This document shows positions 2,931 through 25,691 of a DNA stretch of 32,000 bases, piece by piece. The stretch is from Promethearchaeum syntrophicum. Lineage in GTDB: Archaea; Asgardarchaeota; Lokiarchaeia; Sigyniarchaeales; Promethearchaeaceae. How positions within the stretch are numbered: the first letter of the stretch is position 1; every line of letters begins with the position of its first letter. A program made the translations under genes and the position numbers. The notes under the pieces were generated by a model. That model was not told the DNA's origin, did no database searches, and saw only the letters and a program-made list of their open reading frames with translations. The DNA is taken from NCBI RefSeq assembly GCF_008000775.2, contig NZ_CP042905.2:2520001-2552000 (forward strand). The letters are read 5' to 3'.

Positions 2931-3464
2931 ATGAGTTATTCCTTTGATTTCATGTATGAGAAAATATTAAACAATGATTCCAAGTATAATGGAAAATTTT
3001 TTCCATGTGTCAAAACAACGAAAATATTCTGCCTTCCATCATGTAAAGCAAAAATACCACTCAGAGAAAACGTTGAATTTGTCTTTACTGCAGAACAAGC
3101 ACTTGAAAAGGGATATCGTCCTTGCAAGCGATGTTATCCGCTAAATTCCCCCGAATTTTATCCAGATTGGATGGAAGCAATTGAAGAATATTTAGTCGAA
3201 AACCTAAATCGAAAATTGTCAGATCTTGAATTATCTGAATTAGTTAATCTTGATATCTCTACAATAAGAAGATATTTCAAAAAAAAGTATTCCAAGTCAA
3301 TACAAGAATATCATAGATTTATTCGATTAAATGAAGCAAAAAAAAATTTGGGTGAAGGGGTTGATATAGGGAAAGTGGCATCATCAGTAGGATATAATTC
3401 AGTAAAAGGATTCAAACTTGCATTTAAGAAACAATTTGGAGAATTTACTAATGAAAAAAACTAA
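2931..3464 (+). CDS. adaA: Ada N-terminal-type methylphosphotriester-DNA methyltransferase fused to AraC-family HTH regulator
   Basis: 'VKTTKIFCLPSCKAKIPLRENVEFVFTAEQALEKGYRPCKRCYP' matches the four-Cys Ada zinc-binding domain. The C-terminal half has an AraC-type HTH ('ISTIRRYFKKKYSKSIQEYHRFIRLNEAKKNL...VGYNSVKGFKLAFKKQFG'). Confidence 0.9.
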   Translation: MSYSFDFMYEKILNNDSKYNGKFFPCVKTTKIFCLPSCKAKIPLRENVEFVFTAEQALEKGYRPCKRCYPLNSPEFYPDWMEAIEEYLVENLNRKLSDLELSELVNLDISTIRRYFKKKYSKSIQEYHRFIRLNEAKKNLGEGVDIGKVASSVGYNSVKGFKLAFKKQFGEFTNEKN

Positions 3465-3996
3465 AATAATATTGAAAGAAGTAAAAACCCCGATTGGGGA
3501 AATGGTGTTCGGTTCGTCTGAAAAAGGTTTATGCTTACTTGACTTTAAGTATCGAAAAAGTTTTCCGCGAATCCTCAAAAGAATTAAGGAATATTTTGGG
3601 GAAGACATAACCTATGGAACATCAAAAATTATTGAATTAGCAGAAAATGAGCTCAATCAATATTTACAAGGAGAATTAAAGATATTTACGGTTCCTTTGG
3701 ATATCAAAGGAAATGAATTCCAATTAAAAGTCTGGGAGGCATTATTACAAATAAAATACGGAAAAACTGTTTCTTATCTTGATATTGCAAAAAAAATAAA
3801 TAGACCTAAAGCGGTTCGGGCTATTGCCAATGCAAATGGACAGAATGGTATTGCTGTGATTATTCCTTGTCATAGAGTTATAGGTTCTGATGGATCCTTA
3901 ACAGGGTATGGGGGAGGAATAGCCATCAAGAAAAAACTAATTCGTCTTGAATCAAGATATGGGAAAAATAAAATTACAGATTTTATAAAAAAATAA
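3451..3996 (+). CDS. ogt: O6-methylguanine-DNA methyltransferase (MGMT/Ogt)
   Basis: Active-site motif 'IIPCHRVIGSDGSLTGYGGG' and 'TVSYLDIAKKINRPKAVRAIANANGQN'. I chose ATG 3451 (MKKTKIIL...), preceded by 'ggag', over the longer track ORF starting at 3418. The chosen start overlaps the upstream gene by 14 nt. Confidence 0.93.
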   Translation: MKKTKIILKEVKTPIGEMVFGSSEKGLCLLDFKYRKSFPRILKRIKEYFGEDITYGTSKIIELAENELNQYLQGELKIFTVPLDIKGNEFQLKVWEALLQIKYGKTVSYLDIAKKINRPKAVRAIANANGQNGIAVIIPCHRVIGSDGSLTGYGGGIAIKKKLIRLESRYGKNKITDFIKK

Positions 3997-15112: not shown

Positions 15113-16042
15113 ATGAAATTGTCTGAAACTTTCTCTGATTTCTTAATTGCAAAGGAAATTGAAGAGGGGTGTTCATCTTCAACAATTCGAGCATATTCTT
15201 ATGATTTAAAGATATTAGAGCGAGAATTAGGAGATCCTCATTTAAACAGTATTAAGATTTTTCATATTCGGAAAGTTCTAAAAATATTTTTTGATAAAAA
15301 ATATTCAAAACAAGCCATCGCCAGGAAAATCGCTTGCTATAAAAGTTTCTTCAATTTTTGCTATGAAAATGAACTGATATCTAAAAACCCAATGAAAGCG
15401 GTAAAAAGTCCTAAAATTCGACCTGAAGAGTCTTTACCAAAGTTTCTCTCACAACAAGAAGTAAGAGATATATTAAGTTTTTTAGAGGAAAATAAAAAAA
15501 TTCCTTATACGAGCAGAATAAGATTGACAATTATTATTCGTCTTCTTTACGCATCTATGGCACGAGTTAGCGAAATTAGTGCCTTGAAAGTATTTGATGT
15601 AAATTTCGATCAAAATCTTATTAAAGTTAGAGGAAAAGGAAATAAAGAAAGATATATCCCAATTGATTTACAGACAGCAAAATTACTTAGAATTCAAATA
15701 GAAAATCAATCTGTAATAAATAAAGATAAAAGCTCCTACTTATTTCTAAATAATCGAGGAACCCAGTTAAAACCAAGATCGATTCAACAAGATATACAAA
15801 ATTTGAAATTCTTATTAGGCTATTCAAATGATAAGAAATTGACACCTCATATCTTTAGGCATACAGGAGCAACCCATCTAAGACAAAATGGGATGGATAT
15901 TAGTGAATTGCAAGATATTCTTGGACATAGTAGCCCTAATACAACAAAAATTTATGCCAAAAACGATTTAAATAGATTAAAAAAGTCCTATATACATTAC
16001 CATCCTTTAGAGATAAGTAATGATGGAAAAGAAAGTTTTTAG
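15113..16042 (+). CDS. xerA: Tyrosine recombinase, XerC/D/XerA type
   Basis: N-terminal SAM-like core-binding domain ('TIRAYSYDLKILEREL'). Catalytic residues lie in 'ASMARVSEISALKVFDV', 'HIFRHTGATHL' and 'LGHSSPNTTKIYA'. Confidence 0.88.
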   Translation: MKLSETFSDFLIAKEIEEGCSSSTIRAYSYDLKILERELGDPHLNSIKIFHIRKVLKIFFDKKYSKQAIARKIACYKSFFNFCYENELISKNPMKAVKSPKIRPEESLPKFLSQQEVRDILSFLEENKKIPYTSRIRLTIIIRLLYASMARVSEISALKVFDVNFDQNLIKVRGKGNKERYIPIDLQTAKLLRIQIENQSVINKDKSSYLFLNNRGTQLKPRSIQQDIQNLKFLLGYSNDKKLTPHIFRHTGATHLRQNGMDISELQDILGHSSPNTTKIYAKNDLNRLKKSYIHYHPLEISNDGKESF

Positions 16043-19411: not shown

Positions 19412-19530
19412 TTATCTTAAAATTCACACCAGTGGTTCGACTCGGAGAACGAATCGACTTACCCCTCAAACATTTGGTGGACGTTAGAGTTTTTAATAAA
19501 AAGATTGTAATCATCGTTTAATTAAAAAAT

Positions 19531-20349
19531 TTATTTCTTTGCATAGAGCATATATACTCCTGTGGCTGAAAATTTACCTTCTTTATCAGTAATTACGTTA
19601 AATCCTTTGCTTTTCAAAAGGGAAGTAATTTTTTCTAAAAGATTTTCACCACCTACAATATTTGTATGTACCTCCATTGCAATTTGTTTAATCAATTTCC
19701 AGTCGGATTCTGTTATACCTCGTAATATTTGCCACTCGTAATTTTCTGCATCCATCTTTAGAAAATCAATCGAGTTGACATTTGTTTCCTTAATGATGTC
19801 TGATAGAGGCCGAACTTTAATCGGGATTTTTACTCCTTTGAAAACATATTTATGGCCTAATTTAACAACTGTTTTTCTTAGAAATTTCGGTATAAATCGA
19901 GCTATTGGGCTTGTGATGGCCACAGTTTGATCCCAATTCTCAACAGAATTTTTTAATTCTAAATCAAAATCAATAGGGACTATTGCAGAGAGTGTAGTTG
20001 CTCGGGGATAATAGTTAATTTCAATAACCTTCTCAATATCTCCTAATCCAATATTATATTGATGAACTTCCCGTGTACTTGTTATAAATTCGAGATTTTT
20101 TTTTTGAATTTCAAAAACGTCTGGTACTGGCTCAAATGTATATATTTTTAGATTTTTTGCCTTTGTAGCAATAAAACGTGAAAAAATTCCCACATTTGCC
20201 CCTACATCAAATATAACATCCCCATCTTTTACTTTTATACCAAATTTTTCATACTCACGTTCATTAAATATCTCATTATAAGATTCAAGAGCAGAAATTT
20301 TATCAATATAATAGCAAGTTTCTCCATTTGGTAGTTTGCATGATTTCAT
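19531..20349 (-). CDS. FkbM-family SAM-dependent methyltransferase
   Basis: 'VIFDVGANVGIFSRFIA', 'IYTFEPVPDVFEIQKKNL' and 'IDFLKMDAENYEWQIL' are the FkbM (Methyltransf_21) hallmarks. Confidence 0.85.
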   Translation of the reverse strand: MKSCKLPNGETCYYIDKISALESYNEIFNEREYEKFGIKVKDGDVIFDVGANVGIFSRFIATKAKNLKIYTFEPVPDVFEIQKKNLEFITSTREVHQYNIGLGDIEKVIEINYYPRATTLSAIVPIDFDLELKNSVENWDQTVAITSPIARFIPKFLRKTVVKLGHKYVFKGVKIPIKVRPLSDIIKETNVNSIDFLKMDAENYEWQILRGITESDWKLIKQIAMEVHTNIVGGENLLEKITSLLKSKGFNVITDKEGKFSATGVYMLYAKK

Positions 20350-20419
20350 ATTTAAAACCTTTATTTTTGACCCTTTATTTCAACTTTTTACAAATATAAT
20401 AATAATCCTATAGTTAGAT

Positions 20420-21442
20420 TTAATCTTGAAATCTTCTTAAAATATGTTTCACATTTGTTGAAGTAAAAACACCGTTTCGTTTTAAATCTTTAAGAATCTC
20501 TTTAACTACGAGCATTCTACTTTCCTTATTATTCATCTGTTCAGTTTTTGTATAATTGAGGGTGTGATCAAATATTTCTGCAATATTTTCAGAACTAAGG
20601 ATTTTATACTGAGGATCAATTTTAGGTGGGTTCCAATCTTCCATAATTCTATCTTTAATCAATTTTTCATATTTATTATTTATTTCAAACCCAATTCCCA
20701 TTCTATTGGTCAAGCGAGTCATTTTTAAAGTGGTTCCAGATCCTAAAAAGGGATCTAAAACCGTTTCTCCTTCAATTGTATGCATCTTTATAAGTCGATA
20801 GGGGATATCTTCTGGAAATGGAGCACTATGCCCAAATTTATTTTCTCCTTTTGAATTTATTTTAATTATAGGTGAAATATCATCCCAAATCATCCTAACT
20901 GCCCAATGTCGCCATTCATCTTTTGATAATTTTGACTTTGAAAGCAACTTCTTATCTTCAATTTTTCTCGTTTTACCAGGTTTAACAAATGTAAATATTT
21001 GCTCGAAAGCAGTGTTGACGGCAATATTCGTCGGTTTTGGATAAGATCCCCACGATACGTTGTTAATATATGGAGCTTTATTCCAATAAACCATTCCACT
21101 TAGAAATAATCCTTCTTGGAACATGAATTTCTCAATTTCAAACATAATATTTTTAATTATTCTCCTATTAAAACCTGATTTTTCAGCAGAAATTGGTAAG
21201 GGTTGCACATTTATTGAAATTTTCCCGTTAGGTTGTAAAACACGAATACATTCCTTCCAAACTCGGTTCAAAGCATCAATATATTCTTGATATGATTGAT
21301 TAAAACCGATTTGAGTAGAACCATAATCTCTTACATTCCAATAGGGAGGAGAAGTAACGACAAGGGTAACAGACTCATTTGGGATTTGCTGCATGTTTTC
21401 CGATGATGAAAAATACACTTTTTGTTTCTGAAATGTAAACAT
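20420..21442 (-). CDS. Beta-class DNA methyltransferase (N4-cytosine or N6-adenine; N6_N4_Mtase family)
   Basis: Motif IV 'VVTSPPYWNVRDYG' is near the N-terminus and motif I 'VLDPFLGSGTTLKMT' lies ~200 aa later, which is the beta-class order. There is a ~85-aa C-terminal extension. Confidence 0.88.
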   Translation of the reverse strand: MFTFQKQKVYFSSSENMQQIPNESVTLVVTSPPYWNVRDYGSTQIGFNQSYQEYIDALNRVWKECIRVLQPNGKISINVQPLPISAEKSGFNRRIIKNIMFEIEKFMFQEGLFLSGMVYWNKAPYINNVSWGSYPKPTNIAVNTAFEQIFTFVKPGKTRKIEDKKLLSKSKLSKDEWRHWAVRMIWDDISPIIKINSKGENKFGHSAPFPEDIPYRLIKMHTIEGETVLDPFLGSGTTLKMTRLTNRMGIGFEINNKYEKLIKDRIMEDWNPPKIDPQYKILSSENIAEIFDHTLNYTKTEQMNNKESRMLVVKEILKDLKRNGVFTSTNVKHILRRFQD

Positions 21443-21559: not shown

Positions 21560-22303
21560 ATGCGAAAATTCTCAGAGGATCCTAATATTAAACCCGCAGA
21601 TATTCGGAAAGAAAAAATATTTGTAGCTATTATTACGGCGTTATTTTTAATTTATGTTTTAATTTGGAGTTTAGTCTATTCTTTTTCTGATGCGATGGCA
21701 ATTATGGGATTAGCCTTCTTTATTTTAGTGCCCGCTCTTGGTACTAATGGAATGATGGTTTTGTGTGGGAAAATCGGCAAAATCCCACGCTTTCCAATTG
21801 ACAATGGTAAAACATTCAAAGATGGGGAGCGAATTTTCGGAGATGGCAAATCTTGGAACGGGTTTATCGGCGGATGGCTTACGGGATTTTTAATTTCGGC
21901 TGCAATTTGTTGGTTTTTCTTTCTCAAAATCGCTGAAGCTGAAATGTATTCTGGATTTAAATTCATTGATTATGATTACATAAGGAATTTTATAAAACAT
22001 GTAATGAATCCTGATGGAACAATTCGTACATCATATTGGTTAAGTCAATGTTTTATTGCCTTAGGTTCTCCAATTGGCGATTTAATTGGGAGTTTCTTTA
22101 AACGTAGAAAAAAGGTTAAACGTGGCGAAGTTTATCTTTTCTGGGATCAAAACGATTTTGTTATTGTTTCTTCCTTAATTGCGTGCATTTGGTTTCCATA
22201 CCATTGGTATTTCTGGATTTTTGTGTTATTGATAACCCCAATACTAACCGCACTCGCAAATTGGGTAGGATACATAATAGGAAAAAAAGATGTACCTTGG
22301 TAA
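21560..22303 (+). CDS. carS: CDP-archaeol synthase (CDP-2,3-bis-O-geranylgeranyl-sn-glycerol synthase)
   Basis: The multi-TM protein carries 'PALGTNGMMVL', 'FPIDNGKTFKDGERIFGDGKSWNGFIGG' and 'GDLIGSFFKRRKKVKRGEVYLFWDQNDFV', characteristic of the archaeal CarS/DUF46 family. Confidence 0.88.
   Translation: MRKFSEDPNIKPADIRKEKIFVAIITALFLIYVLIWSLVYSFSDAMAIMGLAFFILVPALGTNGMMVLCGKIGKIPRFPIDNGKTFKDGERIFGDGKSWNGFIGGWLTGFLISAAICWFFFLKIAEAEMYSGFKFIDYDYIRNFIKHVMNPDGTIRTSYWLSQCFIALGSPIGDLIGSFFKRRKKVKRGEVYLFWDQNDFVIVSSLIACIWFPYHWYFWIFVLLITPILTALANWVGYIIGKKDVPW
22258..22302 (+). repeat. Direct repeat, left copy (attL-like); functional 3' end of carS
   Basis: This 45-nt stretch is 40/45 identical to 25126-25170, and the first 21 nt are identical. 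Confidence 0.9.
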
Positions 22304-22429
22304 TTCTTCTCAATTGATGGATTTATATAATTGTCTCATTAGTATAATGAACAATATTTAATTTTCTACTTAAATTGAATTTAAGAATTTTCCTAGAACT
22401 TTTTATATCAATTTATTTATATAAAGTAT

Positions 22430-24106
22430 ATGTTAGACGAAATAGGAATTGAGTATTTTAAAGGAATAAGACAGCTTGAAAAGCTTAAAATAAAACCAAT
22501 TACCTTATTTTGTGGGAAAAATAGTTCAGGAAAAACATCTATTTTGGAATCAATTCTTTTATTAAAGCAATCTTCAGAAAAAGCCCAATATTTTAAGAAA
22601 TTAATACTAAATGGAAAATACGTTCGATTAGGCGCCTTCAAAGATATATCATGGAATAACGATGAAGATGGAAAAATAATATTTAATTTTAAATTACGAA
22701 ATTTAGGGTGGAACAAAAGAAAGAAAAAAGATAGTGAATTTAGTGTTTTAAATTTAAAATTTCAAAGAAAAGATAATAAAACACTTTTTGATGATGTTAC
22801 ACTAAATCAAATTTTCCTAAAAATTAATGAAAAAGATGGAATTAAATCTATCAATATTGATACAAGTAACCCTAATAAAACTATCCTTAAATGGGATATA
22901 GGTAAGAATTTCCTCCTTGATATATCAAAACATCAAGGACAAATCAATTACCATGAAGAATATACGGAAAATTATTTTCAAGGTTTTCATGAATTCGAAG
23001 ATGCAATTATTTTCATTCGTAGAAAAAAATTAAAAATTGACGATCAACAATATTATCAAATAACCCAAAAGAAATATCATCTGTTAATAGAAAATAAGGA
23101 GAAATTCAAAAGCATTATTAAACAATTTCCAAATATTGAAGAAGAGCATATAAAAGATACAATATTTGAATTAAAAAATTTAGTAAAAGAAAGAACCCTT
23201 ACTGGTCGAATTAGATTTAGCCTTGACAAATTAGAAGAACAAATTAATTTAAAGAAATTGTTAGATAAAAAAACCATAAAACTGTATAAAAATATTTTAG
23301 ATAATATTGATGAGGAATTGATGAGTGATATCAATGATTTCTTTTATGAAATCTCAAGCGCAATTAATAAATTATCAAAAACCTTAAACAAAATATCATT
23401 CATTGGACCCCTCAGAGAAGAACCTTCATTAAGATATACTTGCGAAGACCAAAAACTTGAGATTGGAAATAGAGGTGAAAACGCTCCACTAATTTTTGAA
23501 AGTGAAAAAACACTGAAAACTAAAGAATTCTTTTTAATGGAACAAGGAAGGTTTAAAAAGCTTAGAAATAAAAAATTTTCCGAGATATGGAATCTTTGGT
23601 CAAAATACTTTAATTTTGGATTATTAAATTCAAAATCCACTTCAGATTCAATGTTTAGATTTAGAATTGATGAACACAATTTAAAACATGTTGGATTTGG
23701 AATAAGTCAAGTATTTCCAATATTAATCGAAGGTGTTAGAATTGAAAAAGGCGATACTCTAATTTTAGAACAACCTGAAATTCATCTCCACCCCGATTTA
23801 CAAATGCGGTTAGCAGATTTCTTTATAAGCATGGGTATTTCAGGTAGAAATACAATTATTGAGACCCATAGTGAACACATTATTAATCGAATTGTTCGTC
23901 GAGTTGTAGAGGATAATACTCATAAACTCATAGACCTTATTGCAGTTTATTTTGTAAATATGGGAAAAAACGGACTTGAAATTGAGGAAATAAAGATTGA
24001 TCATAAAGGAATCGTCAATTGGCCAAAAGGATTTTTTGATGAAGCAATGAGGGAACAATCTGCAATAATAAAAAAAATAAGAGAAAATAAAAATAAAGAG
24101 GAATGA
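22430..24106 (+). CDS. ABC/OLD-type AAA ATPase (AAA_15/21-like) with DUF3696-like C-terminus
   Basis: Walker A 'GKNSSGKT' (22514-22537), 'IGPLRE', signature-like 'VGFGISQVFPIL', Walker B/D-loop 'TLILEQPEIHLHPD' (from 23756), H-loop 'ETHSEH' and terminal 'WPKGFFDE'. A ~220-aa K/E/N-rich insertion lies between Walker A and the rest of the NBD. Confidence 0.85.
   Translation: MLDEIGIEYFKGIRQLEKLKIKPITLFCGKNSSGKTSILESILLLKQSSEKAQYFKKLILNGKYVRLGAFKDISWNNDEDGKIIFNFKLRNLGWNKRKKKDSEFSVLNLKFQRKDNKTLFDDVTLNQIFLKINEKDGIKSINIDTSNPNKTILKWDIGKNFLLDISKHQGQINYHEEYTENYFQGFHEFEDAIIFIRRKKLKIDDQQYYQITQKKYHLLIENKEKFKSIIKQFPNIEEEHIKDTIFELKNLVKERTLTGRIRFSLDKLEEQINLKKLLDKKTIKLYKNILDNIDEELMSDINDFFYEISSAINKLSKTLNKISFIGPLREEPSLRYTCEDQKLEIGNRGENAPLIFESEKTLKTKEFFLMEQGRFKKLRNKKFSEIWNLWSKYFNFGLLNSKSTSDSMFRFRIDEHNLKHVGFGISQVFPILIEGVRIEKGDTLILEQPEIHLHPDLQMRLADFFISMGISGRNTIIETHSEHIINRIVRRVVEDNTHKLIDLIAVYFVNMGKNGLEIEEIKIDHKGIVNWPKGFFDEAMREQSAIIKKIRENKNKEE
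24098..24101 (+). promoter_or_regulatory. Shine-Dalgarno-like site for the TTG-initiated second cassette gene
   Basis: 'gagg' lies 9 nt upstream of TTG 24111, within the last codons of the ATPase gene. Only 4 nt separate the stop from the start. Confidence 0.45.
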
Positions 24107-24110
24107 CAAG

Positions 24111-25091
24111 TTGATTAAAGCCATCGCAATTCCTGGATTTTTTGATATTGATTCGAATGCATTTCTTGAAGAATGGGGTGATTGGATAAATGAATTCGAA
24201 ATAAAAATTGATATTCCATTAGAAAATTATAACAATCTTTTTAAAATGTTATATGAAGAGGAACCAAGTCATAAAATTGGAATAATGACACAAGTCTTAG
24301 CAAAAATATTTAGAAATTTAAGCTGTAAAAATCATCAGTTGAAACCGTGTGACTTTTCTTTAAGAGTTTCTTTGAAAAATGATTTTCTTGAGTTCATTCA
24401 TGGATTTTTACATAAAAATAATGATGAACCATTCATTTTACTCTTATCTCACCTTGAATGTGGAGATTTAAATACTACTTATTCTTGTGCGTGTTCAAGT
24501 TTAAAACCTTGTACCAAAATACGAATAATTCAAAATATTGACGATTTAAAATCGGAATTAGTAAATTTATGGAATATCCAAGTACATTTAGCTATTGAAA
24601 GAACACCCCCTTCAAGAAGAGGAAGAACTGAAGATTTAAAGTATTATTCAAAAATCTTCTTGAAATTCTTAAATAATAATGAATTAAATCTTCATTACAA
24701 ATATTTAAAAAACGTTGAAGCTTTGTCTGATGAAGATATACTTAAAGAGATGCTAAACCTTGGAATAAGCGAGACACATAGAGTAGATTTAGTAACAATC
24801 CATTCAAATCAAGAAATGATTTTCATTGAAGCAAAAAGTGATTCAAGTTTTGATTCTCTTAAAGATAAATTTCGTTGTACAAAAAATTTTATTGAAAAGT
24901 ATAAAAATGATTCATTTCCTACATTAAAAGCAATCGGAGTTATTCATAACGATCATTTCATTCCTAAGAAATCTCATTCCTGTAAAAATGGAATTCTTTA
25001 TAAAAAAATTTCAACTAAACAAGAAAAAATGGTAGATTCTCATAATATCCCTTGGCATATGTTTAACGAACGAAATTTAAGGAAAAATTAA
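24111..25091 (+). CDS. Hypothetical protein with C-terminal PD-(D/E)xK-like nuclease motif
   Basis: 326-aa ORF (TTG start). 'GISETHRVDLVTIHSNQEMIFIEAKSD' (24771-24836) gives E221...D226...E240-x-K242 with restriction-endonuclease-like spacing. There is a Cys/His cluster 'HLECGDLNTTYSCACSSLKPC'. The N-terminal ~200 aa are unrecognised. Confidence 0.65.
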   Translation: MIKAIAIPGFFDIDSNAFLEEWGDWINEFEIKIDIPLENYNNLFKMLYEEEPSHKIGIMTQVLAKIFRNLSCKNHQLKPCDFSLRVSLKNDFLEFIHGFLHKNNDEPFILLLSHLECGDLNTTYSCACSSLKPCTKIRIIQNIDDLKSELVNLWNIQVHLAIERTPPSRRGRTEDLKYYSKIFLKFLNNNELNLHYKYLKNVEALSDEDILKEMLNLGISETHRVDLVTIHSNQEMIFIEAKSDSSFDSLKDKFRCTKNFIEKYKNDSFPTLKAIGVIHNDHFIPKKSHSCKNGILYKKISTKQEKMVDSHNIPWHMFNERNLRKN

Positions 25092-25125
25092 AAAACCTTT
25101 ATTGCAATTTTTTCGATCAATAATA

Positions 25126-25170
25126 AAATTGGGTAGGATACATAATTGGAAAAAAAGAGGTCCCATGATA
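25126..25170 (+). repeat. Direct repeat, right copy (attR-like); displaced remnant of a carS 3' end
   Basis: In the carS frame it reads NWVGYIIGKKEVP*, versus NWVGYIIGKKDVPW* in the live gene. No upstream carS sequence is attached to it. Confidence 0.9.
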
Positions 25171-25175
25171 GTTTT

Positions 25176-25691
25176 CTAAGAGTCTGATTTACAATAAGGG
25201 CATATTTCTTGAGAGGCTTTTATTTCAGACCCACAAAACGGACAATATTGCCTCTGAACATCGGTATCTGGATTATTTAATATATTATCAAATCTTTGAG
25301 CAATTTCCAGATATTCTGGGGTTTTTCGATTTTGAAATTTTACGTGGTCGATGTTCATGCTTTCTGCCCATTTTTTCATAATTTCATCAGGAAATTTCCA
25401 AACAGCCCCTTTCCCAAGAATACTAAATTTAACCTCAACTAAAACTAAGGTAGTCTTTTCATCTGGAAGATACCCAAATTTAAGCTTGAAAGTTTGACCA
25501 CTTGATGTTCCATAAATTTTCATGGTAATTCCATGTTTAAAAACAAAAACACGGAGTAAATCATTAGCAGAACTCTTTTGTTCAATTATTTCTCCATTTC
25601 TACTTTCCCAAAACATTGAATTTTTCGACCAAATTTCATCTATATCCAAATTCAATACATAAAATCCATATTTTTTCGGCATTTTTTCCAC
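25176..25691 (-). CDS. Hypothetical protein with C-terminal zinc ribbon
   Basis: 171-aa ORF (GTG 25691, or ATG 25682). It ends 'CPFCGSEIKASQEICPYCKSDS' (CxxC-x9-CxxC). Confidence 0.6.
   Translation of the reverse strand: MEKMPKKYGFYVLNLDIDEIWSKNSMFWESRNGEIIEQKSSANDLLRVFVFKHGITMKIYGTSSGQTFKLKFGYLPDEKTTLVLVEVKFSILGKGAVWKFPDEIMKKWAESMNIDHVKFQNRKTPEYLEIAQRFDNILNNPDTDVQRQYCPFCGSEIKASQEICPYCKSDS

Follow-up and report, generated by a model that had tools for sequence, protein, structure and literature searches.

The 3′ end of carS, the gene for CDP-archaeol synthase, occurs twice in a stretch of 32,000 nucleotides (nt) from the archaeon Promethearchaeum syntrophicum MK-D1, and the two copies bracket a 2.8-kb insert that carries two genes. 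This stretch, positions 2,520,001 to 2,552,000 of contig NZ_CP042905.2, is what we call the window, and positions given below refer to it unless a locus from another genome is named (these are cited by number, e.g. L002). An earlier note on this DNA, made from the sequence alone, had read the arrangement as the footprint of site-specific integration into the 3′ end of a gene. The features discussed are collected in Table 1.

Table 1. Features of the carS locus and its surroundings; positions are those of the window
Feature	Position	Strand	Remarks
XerA tyrosine recombinase, chromosomal	15113..16042	+	NCBIfam recomb_XerA_Arch 3.3e-73, above cutoff; Pfam Phage_integrase 2.6e-40
carS (CDP-archaeol synthase), intact target gene	21560..22303	+	Ends inside the upstream repeat copy, which covers the last 14 codons and the stop
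Upstream repeat copy (attL-like)	22258..22305	+	Live carS 3′ end plus 2 nt; last 5 codons match those of relatives at 3-5 of 5
Left non-coding flank of insert	22306..22429	+	A/T-rich TATA-like stretch just 5′ of the ATPase start codon
Cassette gene 1, 558-aa ABC-type ATPase	22430..24106	+	AAA_15/AAA_21 and C-terminal DUF3696 helix; NsnB-like
Cassette gene 2, 326-aa orphan protein	24111..25091	+	Presumed effector; PD-(D/E)xK-like motif
Right non-coding spacer of insert, 34 nt	25092..25125	+	Weak resemblance to the right end of the L016 filler
Downstream repeat copy (attR-like)	25126..25173	+	Untranslated relic of the carS 3′ end; last 5 codons match those of relatives at 0-2 of 5
Convergent zinc-ribbon gene, 171 aa, original right-hand neighbour of carS	25176..25691	-	Pfam zinc-ribbon, weak

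The target is a protein-coding gene, as the earlier note had it. Its product matches the CarS-like family of Pfam (PF01864, 6.4e-27) and the NCBIfam model NF003114 (1.3e-40; at 139.1 bits the match lies below that model's curated cutoff of 148 bits), and it is 100% identical to the CDP-archaeol synthase of P. syntrophicum; both proteins of the insert likewise match NCBI proteins of this species at 100%. Exact-protein look-ups of this CarS and of the neighbouring zinc-ribbon protein returned no record. A tRNA or another known RNA was considered as the target and rejected; no tRNA lies in the window or the related loci, and neither the repeat nor the insert has a credible Rfam match.

The two copies of the direct repeat are 48 nt long and agree at 42 positions, including all of the first 21; this is the longest direct repeat of the whole window. 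A gapped extension is possible as far as 22310 and 25177. The exact core of 21 nt compares with a maximum of 15-17 nt in 20 shuffles, and a local alignment of flank against flank scores 68, compared with a maximum of 38 in 100 shuffles. With a single mismatch allowed the core grows to 33 nt, AAATTGGGTAGGATACATAATWGGAAAAAAAGA. The repeat is therefore present much as the earlier note described it, if slightly longer, and the translations given there also hold: the live copy reads NWVGYIIGKKDVPW followed by a stop, and the downstream copy reads NWVGYIIGKKEVP followed by two stops. The frame of the downstream copy is closed by a TAA stop directly upstream of it, as read from the sequence.

The differences between the copies are informative. 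Five mismatches had been listed before and all of these were confirmed; a sixth lies at 22303, the third base of the stop codon, where the live copy has TAA and the relic TAG. In the carS frame each of the six occupies a third codon position, for which the chance expectation is (1/3)^6 = 0.0014, and both copies look like coding sequence that has diverged under constraint. The restriction to third positions thus stands, while the pattern is more clustered than had been described: one mismatch falls in the first 10 codons and five in the last five, one per codon (Fisher p = 0.002).

The left edge of the similarity is sharp, and no significant further similarity was found to the right of the repeat. 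A gapped local alignment of the left flank of the insert with the sequence to the right of the relic, and with three sites in relatives that lack the insert, likewise gave no significant homology beyond the 48 nt. The repeat is therefore a bounded one and not part of a larger tandem duplication, a possibility that the earlier note had raised against its own reading. Assembly collapse is not an issue either: the DNA comes from a cultured strain, on a contig of 4.32 Mb, and the copies differ at six positions.

Comparison with relatives identifies the 2.8-kb segment as an insertion. Scans with CarS yielded ten lineages of the Promethearchaeum clade with CarS identities of 77-87%. The genes around carS are common to these relatives, with an HD-domain protein and a DNA methylase upstream and, downstream, a 528-aa (amino acid) gene and two transporters of the ATP-binding cassette (ABC) type, preceded at the empty sites by the zinc-ribbon gene. 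The two insert genes are absent from all ten, and none of the 27 loci fetched holds a second carS end. In four relatives (L002, L005, L006 and L026) only 2-4 nt separate the stop of carS from that of a convergent zinc-ribbon gene, the one that lies to the right of the relic in MK-D1; since carS abuts this gene directly there, the segment between them in MK-D1 has been inserted. Empty sites of this kind had been named by the earlier note as a check and now support its claim of an insertion; the same cassette, for which it had proposed a search beside carS in other genomes, was not found there in the ten lineages. A five-way alignment shows the upstream copy to be continuous with the body of carS, and the downstream copy to be continuous with the spacer and the end of the zinc-ribbon gene. 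Between the last base of the relic's TAG (25170) and the first base of the convergent stop (25176) there is a spacer of about 4-5 nt that is of the native type. The stop-to-stop spacing of 7 nt quoted earlier was approximate, the values being 5 nt here and 2-4 nt at the empty sites.

The slot behind carS is variable among the relatives and holds the zinc-ribbon gene, a TrmO_N-like gene, a filler of 220 nt, or nothing. The zinc-ribbon gene has been deleted in L001, L018 and L021. In L022 (5309-5910) it is replaced by a 146-aa gene with a TrmO_N domain (Pfam 3.5e-25), and the change begins directly after TAATTC, a 6-nt sequence that likewise follows the live carS end of MK-D1; from this live end the carS end of L022 differs at 3 of 46 nt. 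A non-coding filler of about 220 nt sits at the exact carS/zinc-ribbon junction in the three lineages whose CarS is closest to that of MK-D1 (L016:5111-5330, L017:1564-1783 and L027:2916-3042). It is near-identical between L016 and L027, yet the adjoining carS ends differ (DVPF and EVPW, both closed by TAG). The filler of L016 has no credible Rfam match and folds no better than shuffled sequences. Its right end weakly resembles the 34-nt spacer to the left of the MK-D1 relic. Homology between the L016/L027 filler and the non-coding flanks of the insert was considered; it reaches no significance over the whole length and is suggestive at the right end alone. About 80 nt are missing from the interior of the L027 carS (2250-2915) by comparison with MK-D1 (window ~21990-22095), and its frame is shifted as a result; either this copy is a pseudogene or the metagenome contig, which is 3 kb long, was misassembled.

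The insert consists of 126 nt of non-coding sequence, the gene for a 558-aa protein, a gap of 4 nt, the gene for a 326-aa protein and 34 further non-coding nt. The earlier note had reported two genes only and no integrase or transposase between the repeats, and searches against Pfam, PADLOC, PHROGs and NCBIfam agree, with no recombinase domain found there. The left flank holds no open reading frame (ORF) and no recombinase remnant, and has no similarity to the sequence of the empty sites.

Profile matches place the first protein in the NsnB/HEC-03/PDC-M55 families of ATPases. It matches AAA_15 (3e-23), AAA_21 (1e-12) and DUF3696 (9e-8) in Pfam, NsnB (9.6e-59, the best match), HEC-03B (5e-46) and PDC-M55A (4e-36) in PADLOC, and phrog_21420 (2.5e-64) in PHROGs, and its translation contains the Walker A motif GKNSSGKTS. 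The second protein has no match in Pfam, PADLOC, PHROGs or NCBIfam, nor among PDB sequences by profile search. Among 1.84 billion cluster representatives it has three significant relatives and a marginal one (E = 1.6e-4). Those that could be traced adjoin a homologue of the first gene, and the source names of their contigs, where given, are Lokiarchaeial; loci of this partner family were found in Lokiarchaeia and on unclassified metagenome contigs only. An invariant block, HRVDL..T.HS..E..FIEAKS (with D226, E240 and K242), resembles the signature of PD-(D/E)xK-type nucleases, and this motif makes the protein a putative nuclease. AlphaFold models were too poor to use, with a mean predicted local distance difference test (pLDDT) of 46 for the full length and 49 for the C-terminal 134 aa modelled from four sequences.

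The closest parallel to this gene pair is the Menshen system, for which it is predicted that an NsnB tetramer holds the effector NsnC, encoded downstream, through its DUF3696 tails and regulates it; Septu, PARIS and Gabija are comparable (PMC12065111). As in Menshen and the two-gene candidates HEC-03 and PDC-M55 of PADLOC, an NsnB-type ABC ATPase with a DUF3696 tail is followed by a gene for a hypothetical protein in the position of the NsnC effector. Unlike Menshen, the pair lacks NsnA, the ParB-DUF262 sensor, and none of the models for NsnC, inPIN or effectors matches its second protein. No NsnA/DUF262 gene was found among the scanned window ORFs of at least 100 aa, and the gene that precedes the pair is carS; without NsnA the two genes do not make up a Menshen system. 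By analogy with these systems, the cargo is most likely a two-component antiviral module in which the NsnB-type ATPase would control a nuclease-like effector, and its part in defence is accordingly a putative one.

A homologous cassette with a similar scar exists at another gene. The closest homologue comes from a Lokiarchaeon of the Loki's Castle metagenome, whose two proteins share 69% and 66% aa identity with those of MK-D1. Its locus is a composite, put together from contigs of independent assemblies whose overlap of 1956 nt contains one mismatch. This cassette is bracketed by a direct repeat of 213 nt, at 30-242 and 3237-3449 of the composite (L011:30-242 and L010:1772-1984), and each of the junctions is crossed by contigs from independent assemblies. 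No recombinase was found between the two copies. The first 106 nt of the repeat are the 3′ end of rpl24e (Pfam L24e, 2.5e-10), with 21 mismatches whose distribution over the codon positions, 5:5:10, is not distinguishable from neutral. The other 107 nt are non-coding and fully identical, in contrast to the coding block with its divergence of about 20% (Fisher 1e-7); they have no Rfam match and fold no better than shuffled sequences. Two loop-type contigs at this locus (L012 and L013) are what a de Bruijn graph is expected to yield for any segment bounded by repeats, and are no proof of a circle.

More distant homologues are found in L014/L015 and in L009, and around these no flanking repeat rises above background. 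A 39-nt pair in L009 (at 5158 and 12030) was considered as a flanking repeat and rejected as a chance-level match. The L009 cassette, the most distant of the homologues, has a 231-aa tyrosine-recombinase-like gene 390 nt downstream (Pfam 4e-7). This gene forms part of a defence island (L009:5267-20801) together with an HpaII-type restriction enzyme and a cytosine methylase, a winged-helix protein and an OLD-family nuclease (ATPase and TOPRIM). Near the L014 cassette there are a tandem repeat of 23 nt in about five copies (L014:13336-13445) and, further on (L014:19797-21683), a gene for a DDE transposase and the beginning of another gene, whose called product has 10,102 aa. The two cassette genes are the only constant content of the four loci, which lie in four different genomic contexts. 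No conserved element ends were found among the four cassettes beyond about 60 promoter-proximal nt that MK-D1 shares with the Loki's Castle cassette, and no inverted repeats.

A well-studied bacterial case offers the nearest likeness to the MK-D1 locus. The cryptic prophage e14 of E. coli K-12 starts inside icd and carries a 165-nt pseudogene, icdC, at its far end. By our own measurement there are 12 mismatches between the two copies of 165 nt; 11 of these are in third codon position, and D/E exchanges occur. The first 11 nt of the copies are identical and the homology ends at the stop codon. Phage 21 also integrates in the 3′ end of icd. Both targets, carS and icd, code for proteins; at each, the reading frame is completed by the element-proximal copy, and a relic of the gene end is stranded on the far side. 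In both cases the repeat opens on the left with a short stretch of identity and extends as far as the stop codon, nearly all of the mismatches are in third position, and D/E exchanges occur. The footprint that the earlier note took for site-specific integration at a gene's 3′ end thus matches a verified instance. However, e14 measures 15 kb and encodes intE and xisE, whereas the insert at carS measures 2.8 kb, with two genes and no recombinase; the repeat here is 48 nt and the host an Asgard archaeon, and the native copy is known for icd.

The missing recombinase recalls another class of bacterial element. The cis-mobilisable elements (CIMEs) of Firmicutes are decayed integrative and conjugative elements (ICEs) or integrative and mobilisable elements (IMEs) that have kept attL and attR but lost the genes for integration and transfer (PMC5704250). 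The carS insert shares with these the att-like flanking repeats that include the target gene's 3′ end, the retained cargo and the lack of an internal integrase. In contrast to CIMEs, which descend from a recognisable ICE or IME and are moved by a co-resident element of the same specificity, no parent or helper was found at carS, there is no conjugation context and the insert holds no remnants of decay. The only link to an integrase-bearing element is the tyrosine-recombinase-like gene beside the L009 homologue. Transposons and casposons leave identical, short target-site duplications, unlike the diverged 48-nt copies at carS, and the insert has no transposase or Cas1 gene and no terminal inverted repeats. 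Bacterial genomes also have integrase-free hotspots for defence islands between conserved core genes, normally with no duplicated gene end. The carS locus resembles these in having defence-type cargo in a variable slot between conserved genes, and differs in its bounded, coding-type repeat. In short, the carS locus bears a scar of the e14/CIME kind but has no recombinase, and a sister case exists at another gene.

Which of the two repeat copies is the original one is a question on which the evidence is mixed. The earlier note had proposed that the live end was supplied by the incoming element and that the relic is native. The third codon positions of MK-D1 carS are 0.60-0.69 identical to those of relatives, i.e. 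about a third differ. Six to eight of the last nine codons of the live end match the relatives, which fits the figure for the whole gene; for the relic the match is 2-4 of nine and 0-2 of the last five. The live version of the carS end is common even to distant relatives, whereas the last 15 nt of the relic are an outlier with respect to every one. A clade-typical live end and an outlying relic argue against the proposed polarity, unless the ancestor of MK-D1 had an unusual tract at this junction.

The sequence beyond the relic points the other way. Over the 3′ tail of the zinc-ribbon gene (25176-25289, ~115 nt) the nucleotide identity of MK-D1 to its relatives is 0.71-0.74, against 0.85-0.86 among the relatives themselves, and over the last ~38 codons the aa identity is 0.50-0.66, against 0.78-0.85; the rest of the gene is normal. 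The MK-D1 protein keeps all four of its cysteines despite this diverged tail. Together with the last 15 nt of the relic the tail forms an outlier tract of about 130 nt, and since the right part of the relic and the adjoining chromosome are both outliers, they would share one history. Such a history is predicted by the earlier polarity, if the MK-D1 ancestor carried a junction tract of ~130 nt, and equally by a donor flank that arrived with the cassette. The nucleotide identity of carS to its relatives is uniform over the whole gene, the 3′ end included, and a donor tract inside carS that would fix the polarity, which was looked for, is not visible. The proposed polarity is thus not established. 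Among the relatives, recombination has left tracts that stop at this place: L002:4037-4220 and L005:1410-1590 are 95-97% identical over the 3′ ~180 nt of the zinc-ribbon gene and ~78-80% identical further in, which marks a recombination tract with its end near the carS junction.

We propose, with a probability of roughly 45%, that a circular cassette was inserted in the manner of Campbell and e14, and that the recombinase was of the integrase type and either acted in trans or has since been lost. A single reciprocal crossover in the terminal ~48 nt of carS would have taken a small circular DNA into the chromosome. Three parts would have made up the circle: the two-gene ATPase and effector cassette, a promoter region belonging to it, and 48 nt copied from a carS 3′ end, which had presumably evolved as coding sequence in another Promethearchaeum-like lineage. 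The crossover would leave one hybrid copy that completes carS, and an untranslated second copy beside the old downstream neighbour. The recombinase was most likely a tyrosine integrase encoded outside the insert, and the locus would then be an archaeal counterpart of a bacterial CIME, with its att sites kept and its integrase gone. The geometry, a single reciprocal crossover between the chromosome and a circle with a homologue of the gene end, is well supported; we infer the circular intermediate, the crossover itself and the type of recombinase. An integrase is favoured because the repeats are built like att sites, the homology is very short, the ends of conserved genes were chosen and a recombinase gene lies beside one of the homologues.

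Several observations weigh against this proposal. The insert has no integrase, and its 126 and 34 non-coding nt leave no room for a decayed one. The same cargo occurs at two genes, carS and rpl24e, and an integrase model would therefore require two specificities and two clean losses of an integrase. A homologous cassette at rpl24e without an integrase is awkward for a single dedicated enzyme, and insertion by a site-specific integrase, as the earlier note had it, is not established. No element with a second carS end was found in the ten lineages, and a degenerate carS-end pattern had zero matches in 2.9 million viral contigs; a profile of the partner protein and the identical block of Loki's Castle also had zero matches in viral contigs. 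There is thus no sign that carS is a recurrent att site. Neither in nor around the repeat is there an inverted-repeat core of the 11-6-11 type, and the homologues in L014/L015 and L009 have no flanking repeat. A perfect 107-nt block beside a coding block with 20% divergence, as seen at Loki's Castle, is not predicted by a strictly site-specific mechanism. The two tests of polarity point in opposite directions, the defence role is a putative one, and gene 2 has no recognisable domain.

The foremost alternative accepts the same circle and the same single crossover, and attributes them to homologous recombination by the host after an imprecise excision had taken along the end of a neighbouring gene. 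We regard this as a serious rival, if less probable than an integrase. Excision in the donor would have taken the last 48 nt of carS, and in the Loki's Castle lineage 213 nt of rpl24e and the spacer downstream of it. The cassette would be a passenger without an integrase that spreads among relatives and drags along a piece of its previous neighbourhood. Captured flanks would explain, without two integrases, why both of the repeat-bracketed copies lack a recombinase and lie at different genes, and the perfect 107-nt block of Loki's Castle is the kind of identity that such recombination needs. In relatives, recombination tracts have their ends close to this very junction (95-97% identity over the 3′ 180 nt between L002 and L005, against ~0.78 beyond), MK-D1 has its ~130-nt diverged tract across the relic end and the zinc-ribbon tail, and no inverted-repeat core was found. 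Against this alternative, a natural single crossover would have had very little homology to work with, 48 nt or, if one mismatch is allowed, 33 nt, and the origin of a circle with exactly a fragment of a gene end is ad hoc. Furthermore, homology that ends at the stop codon and has a sharp left edge is the classic att design of integrases, as in e14, and one homologue adjoins a tyrosine recombinase gene. The two mechanisms may also blur into each other, since an archaeal integrase is reported to catalyse events resembling homologous recombination on short identical segments (PMC5495485).

A third reading makes the cassette mobilise itself. The gene 2 protein would be a PD-(D/E)xK-type nuclease that, with help from the ATPase, cuts or recombines DNA at gene ends, in a homing-like or TnsA/TnsC-like manner, and the pair would be a new kind of selfish element, in place of a defence system or in addition to being one. 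We consider this improbable. In its favour, the two genes are the only constant content of four loci in four contexts, and gene 2 falls outside known families and bears a nuclease-like motif; two of the four loci have gene-end duplications, and the five consecutive synonymous-site differences beside the insertion point resemble a recoded target site. However, the cassettes share no terminal sequences or inverted repeats, the repeats are of unequal length (48 and 213 nt) and missing at the other two loci, the ATPase family is characteristically associated with defence, and neither structure nor domains give evidence of a recombinase.

Less probable again is an integration by the host's own Xer system. 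The integrative mobile elements exploiting Xer (IMEX), e.g. those of the CTX-phi type, integrate via host Xer recombinases and are flanked by dif-like sites. At carS, a XerA encoded 6 kb upstream would have acted on a dif-like site at the gene end. The window does contain a bona fide XerA gene, the only integrase or transposase found among all its ORFs of at least 100 aa, and the insert, like an IMEX, has no integrase of its own. A dif site has two inverted arms of about 11 bp around a spacer of about 6 bp (PMC2958812). No such 11-6-11 imperfect palindrome exists in either copy of the carS repeat or in the Loki's Castle repeat, and the best arm complementarity in or near the repeats, 8 of 11, is at background level. 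The second cassette, moreover, sits at a different site. A XerA-type gene is also found 4-6 kb upstream of carS in a close relative (L018:912-1841) and in a distant Lokiarchaeon (L024:766-1677), with the domains Phage_integrase and Phage_int_SAM_1 and with no insert behind carS. Its presence in three genomes marks it as old synteny and not as part of the insert.

An account with no mobile element at all, by a local duplication of the carS end and an unrelated insertion or by an assembly artefact, is already disfavoured and about as improbable as the Xer route: plain insertions do happen in this genome, as a 1-kb MK-D1-specific insertion of an FkbM gene nearby without a repeat illustrates, but a recent duplication would be identical and an old one decayed at all codon positions, whereas the copies differ only at synonymous-type positions, the same design surrounds the homologous cassette in another genome, and diverged copies in a closed 4.32-Mb genome can be neither collapsed nor invented by an assembler. 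Even taken together, self-mobilisation, Xer-dependent integration and these trivial explanations are unlikely, and we leave a small chance, lower than that of the three combined, to mechanisms outside those considered here.

Some further genes of the window deserve a brief description. The FkbM insertion (19412-20419) is the second one specific to MK-D1; it brings a 272-aa FkbM-type methyltransferase gene between the convergent genes for the HD-domain protein and the DNA methylase, which are only 3-15 nt apart in L016, L018 and L022. No flanking repeat or duplicated gene end was found around it. The DNA methylase, an N6/N4 type II DNA methyltransferase (20420-21442; e.g. L001:2954-3988), is conserved directly upstream of carS across the clade. 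No restriction-enzyme domain was found among the neighbouring ORFs scanned, and it appears to be an orphan methylase. Far upstream, an ORF for an Ada-type zinc-binding/AraC regulator (2931-3464) overlaps by 47 nt that of an O6-methylguanine-DNA methyltransferase (3418-3996), whose TTG start may have been placed too far upstream.

Among cultured Asgard archaea MK-D1 is the reference; how genes are gained and lost in its lineage is little known. The carS locus is a clean gene gain, dated by comparison and with both of its junctions preserved, in a strain that can be grown; excision, a circle and the recombinase are therefore accessible to experiment in MK-D1. Its cargo is a compact pair of an ATPase and an orphan effector, a candidate Asgard antiviral module related to Menshen. 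Because a homologous cassette bears the same kind of scar at another gene, again without an integrase, the locus suggests that Lokiarchaeia have a route for the movement of small defence cassettes that differs from the usual islands with an integrase.

A broader claim would be that Lokiarchaeia harbour minimal, integrase-free mobile defence cassettes, circles that have captured the 3′ end of a housekeeping gene of the host (carS in MK-D1, rpl24e at Loki's Castle), re-insert there and restore the gene, by the agency of a host or low-specificity recombinase or of the cassette's own proteins. As things stand we hold this to be unlikely. If it were true, it would be a mode of mobility not described for archaeal defence genes; if the locus is only a decayed integrated element, it would be the first documented att-type scar at a protein gene in this genome, and otherwise ordinary. 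The importance of the finding would rise if integrase-free cassettes that capture gene ends prove to be general in Lokiarchaeia. How such cassettes move bears on the circulation of defence genes in the archaeal relatives of eukaryotes.

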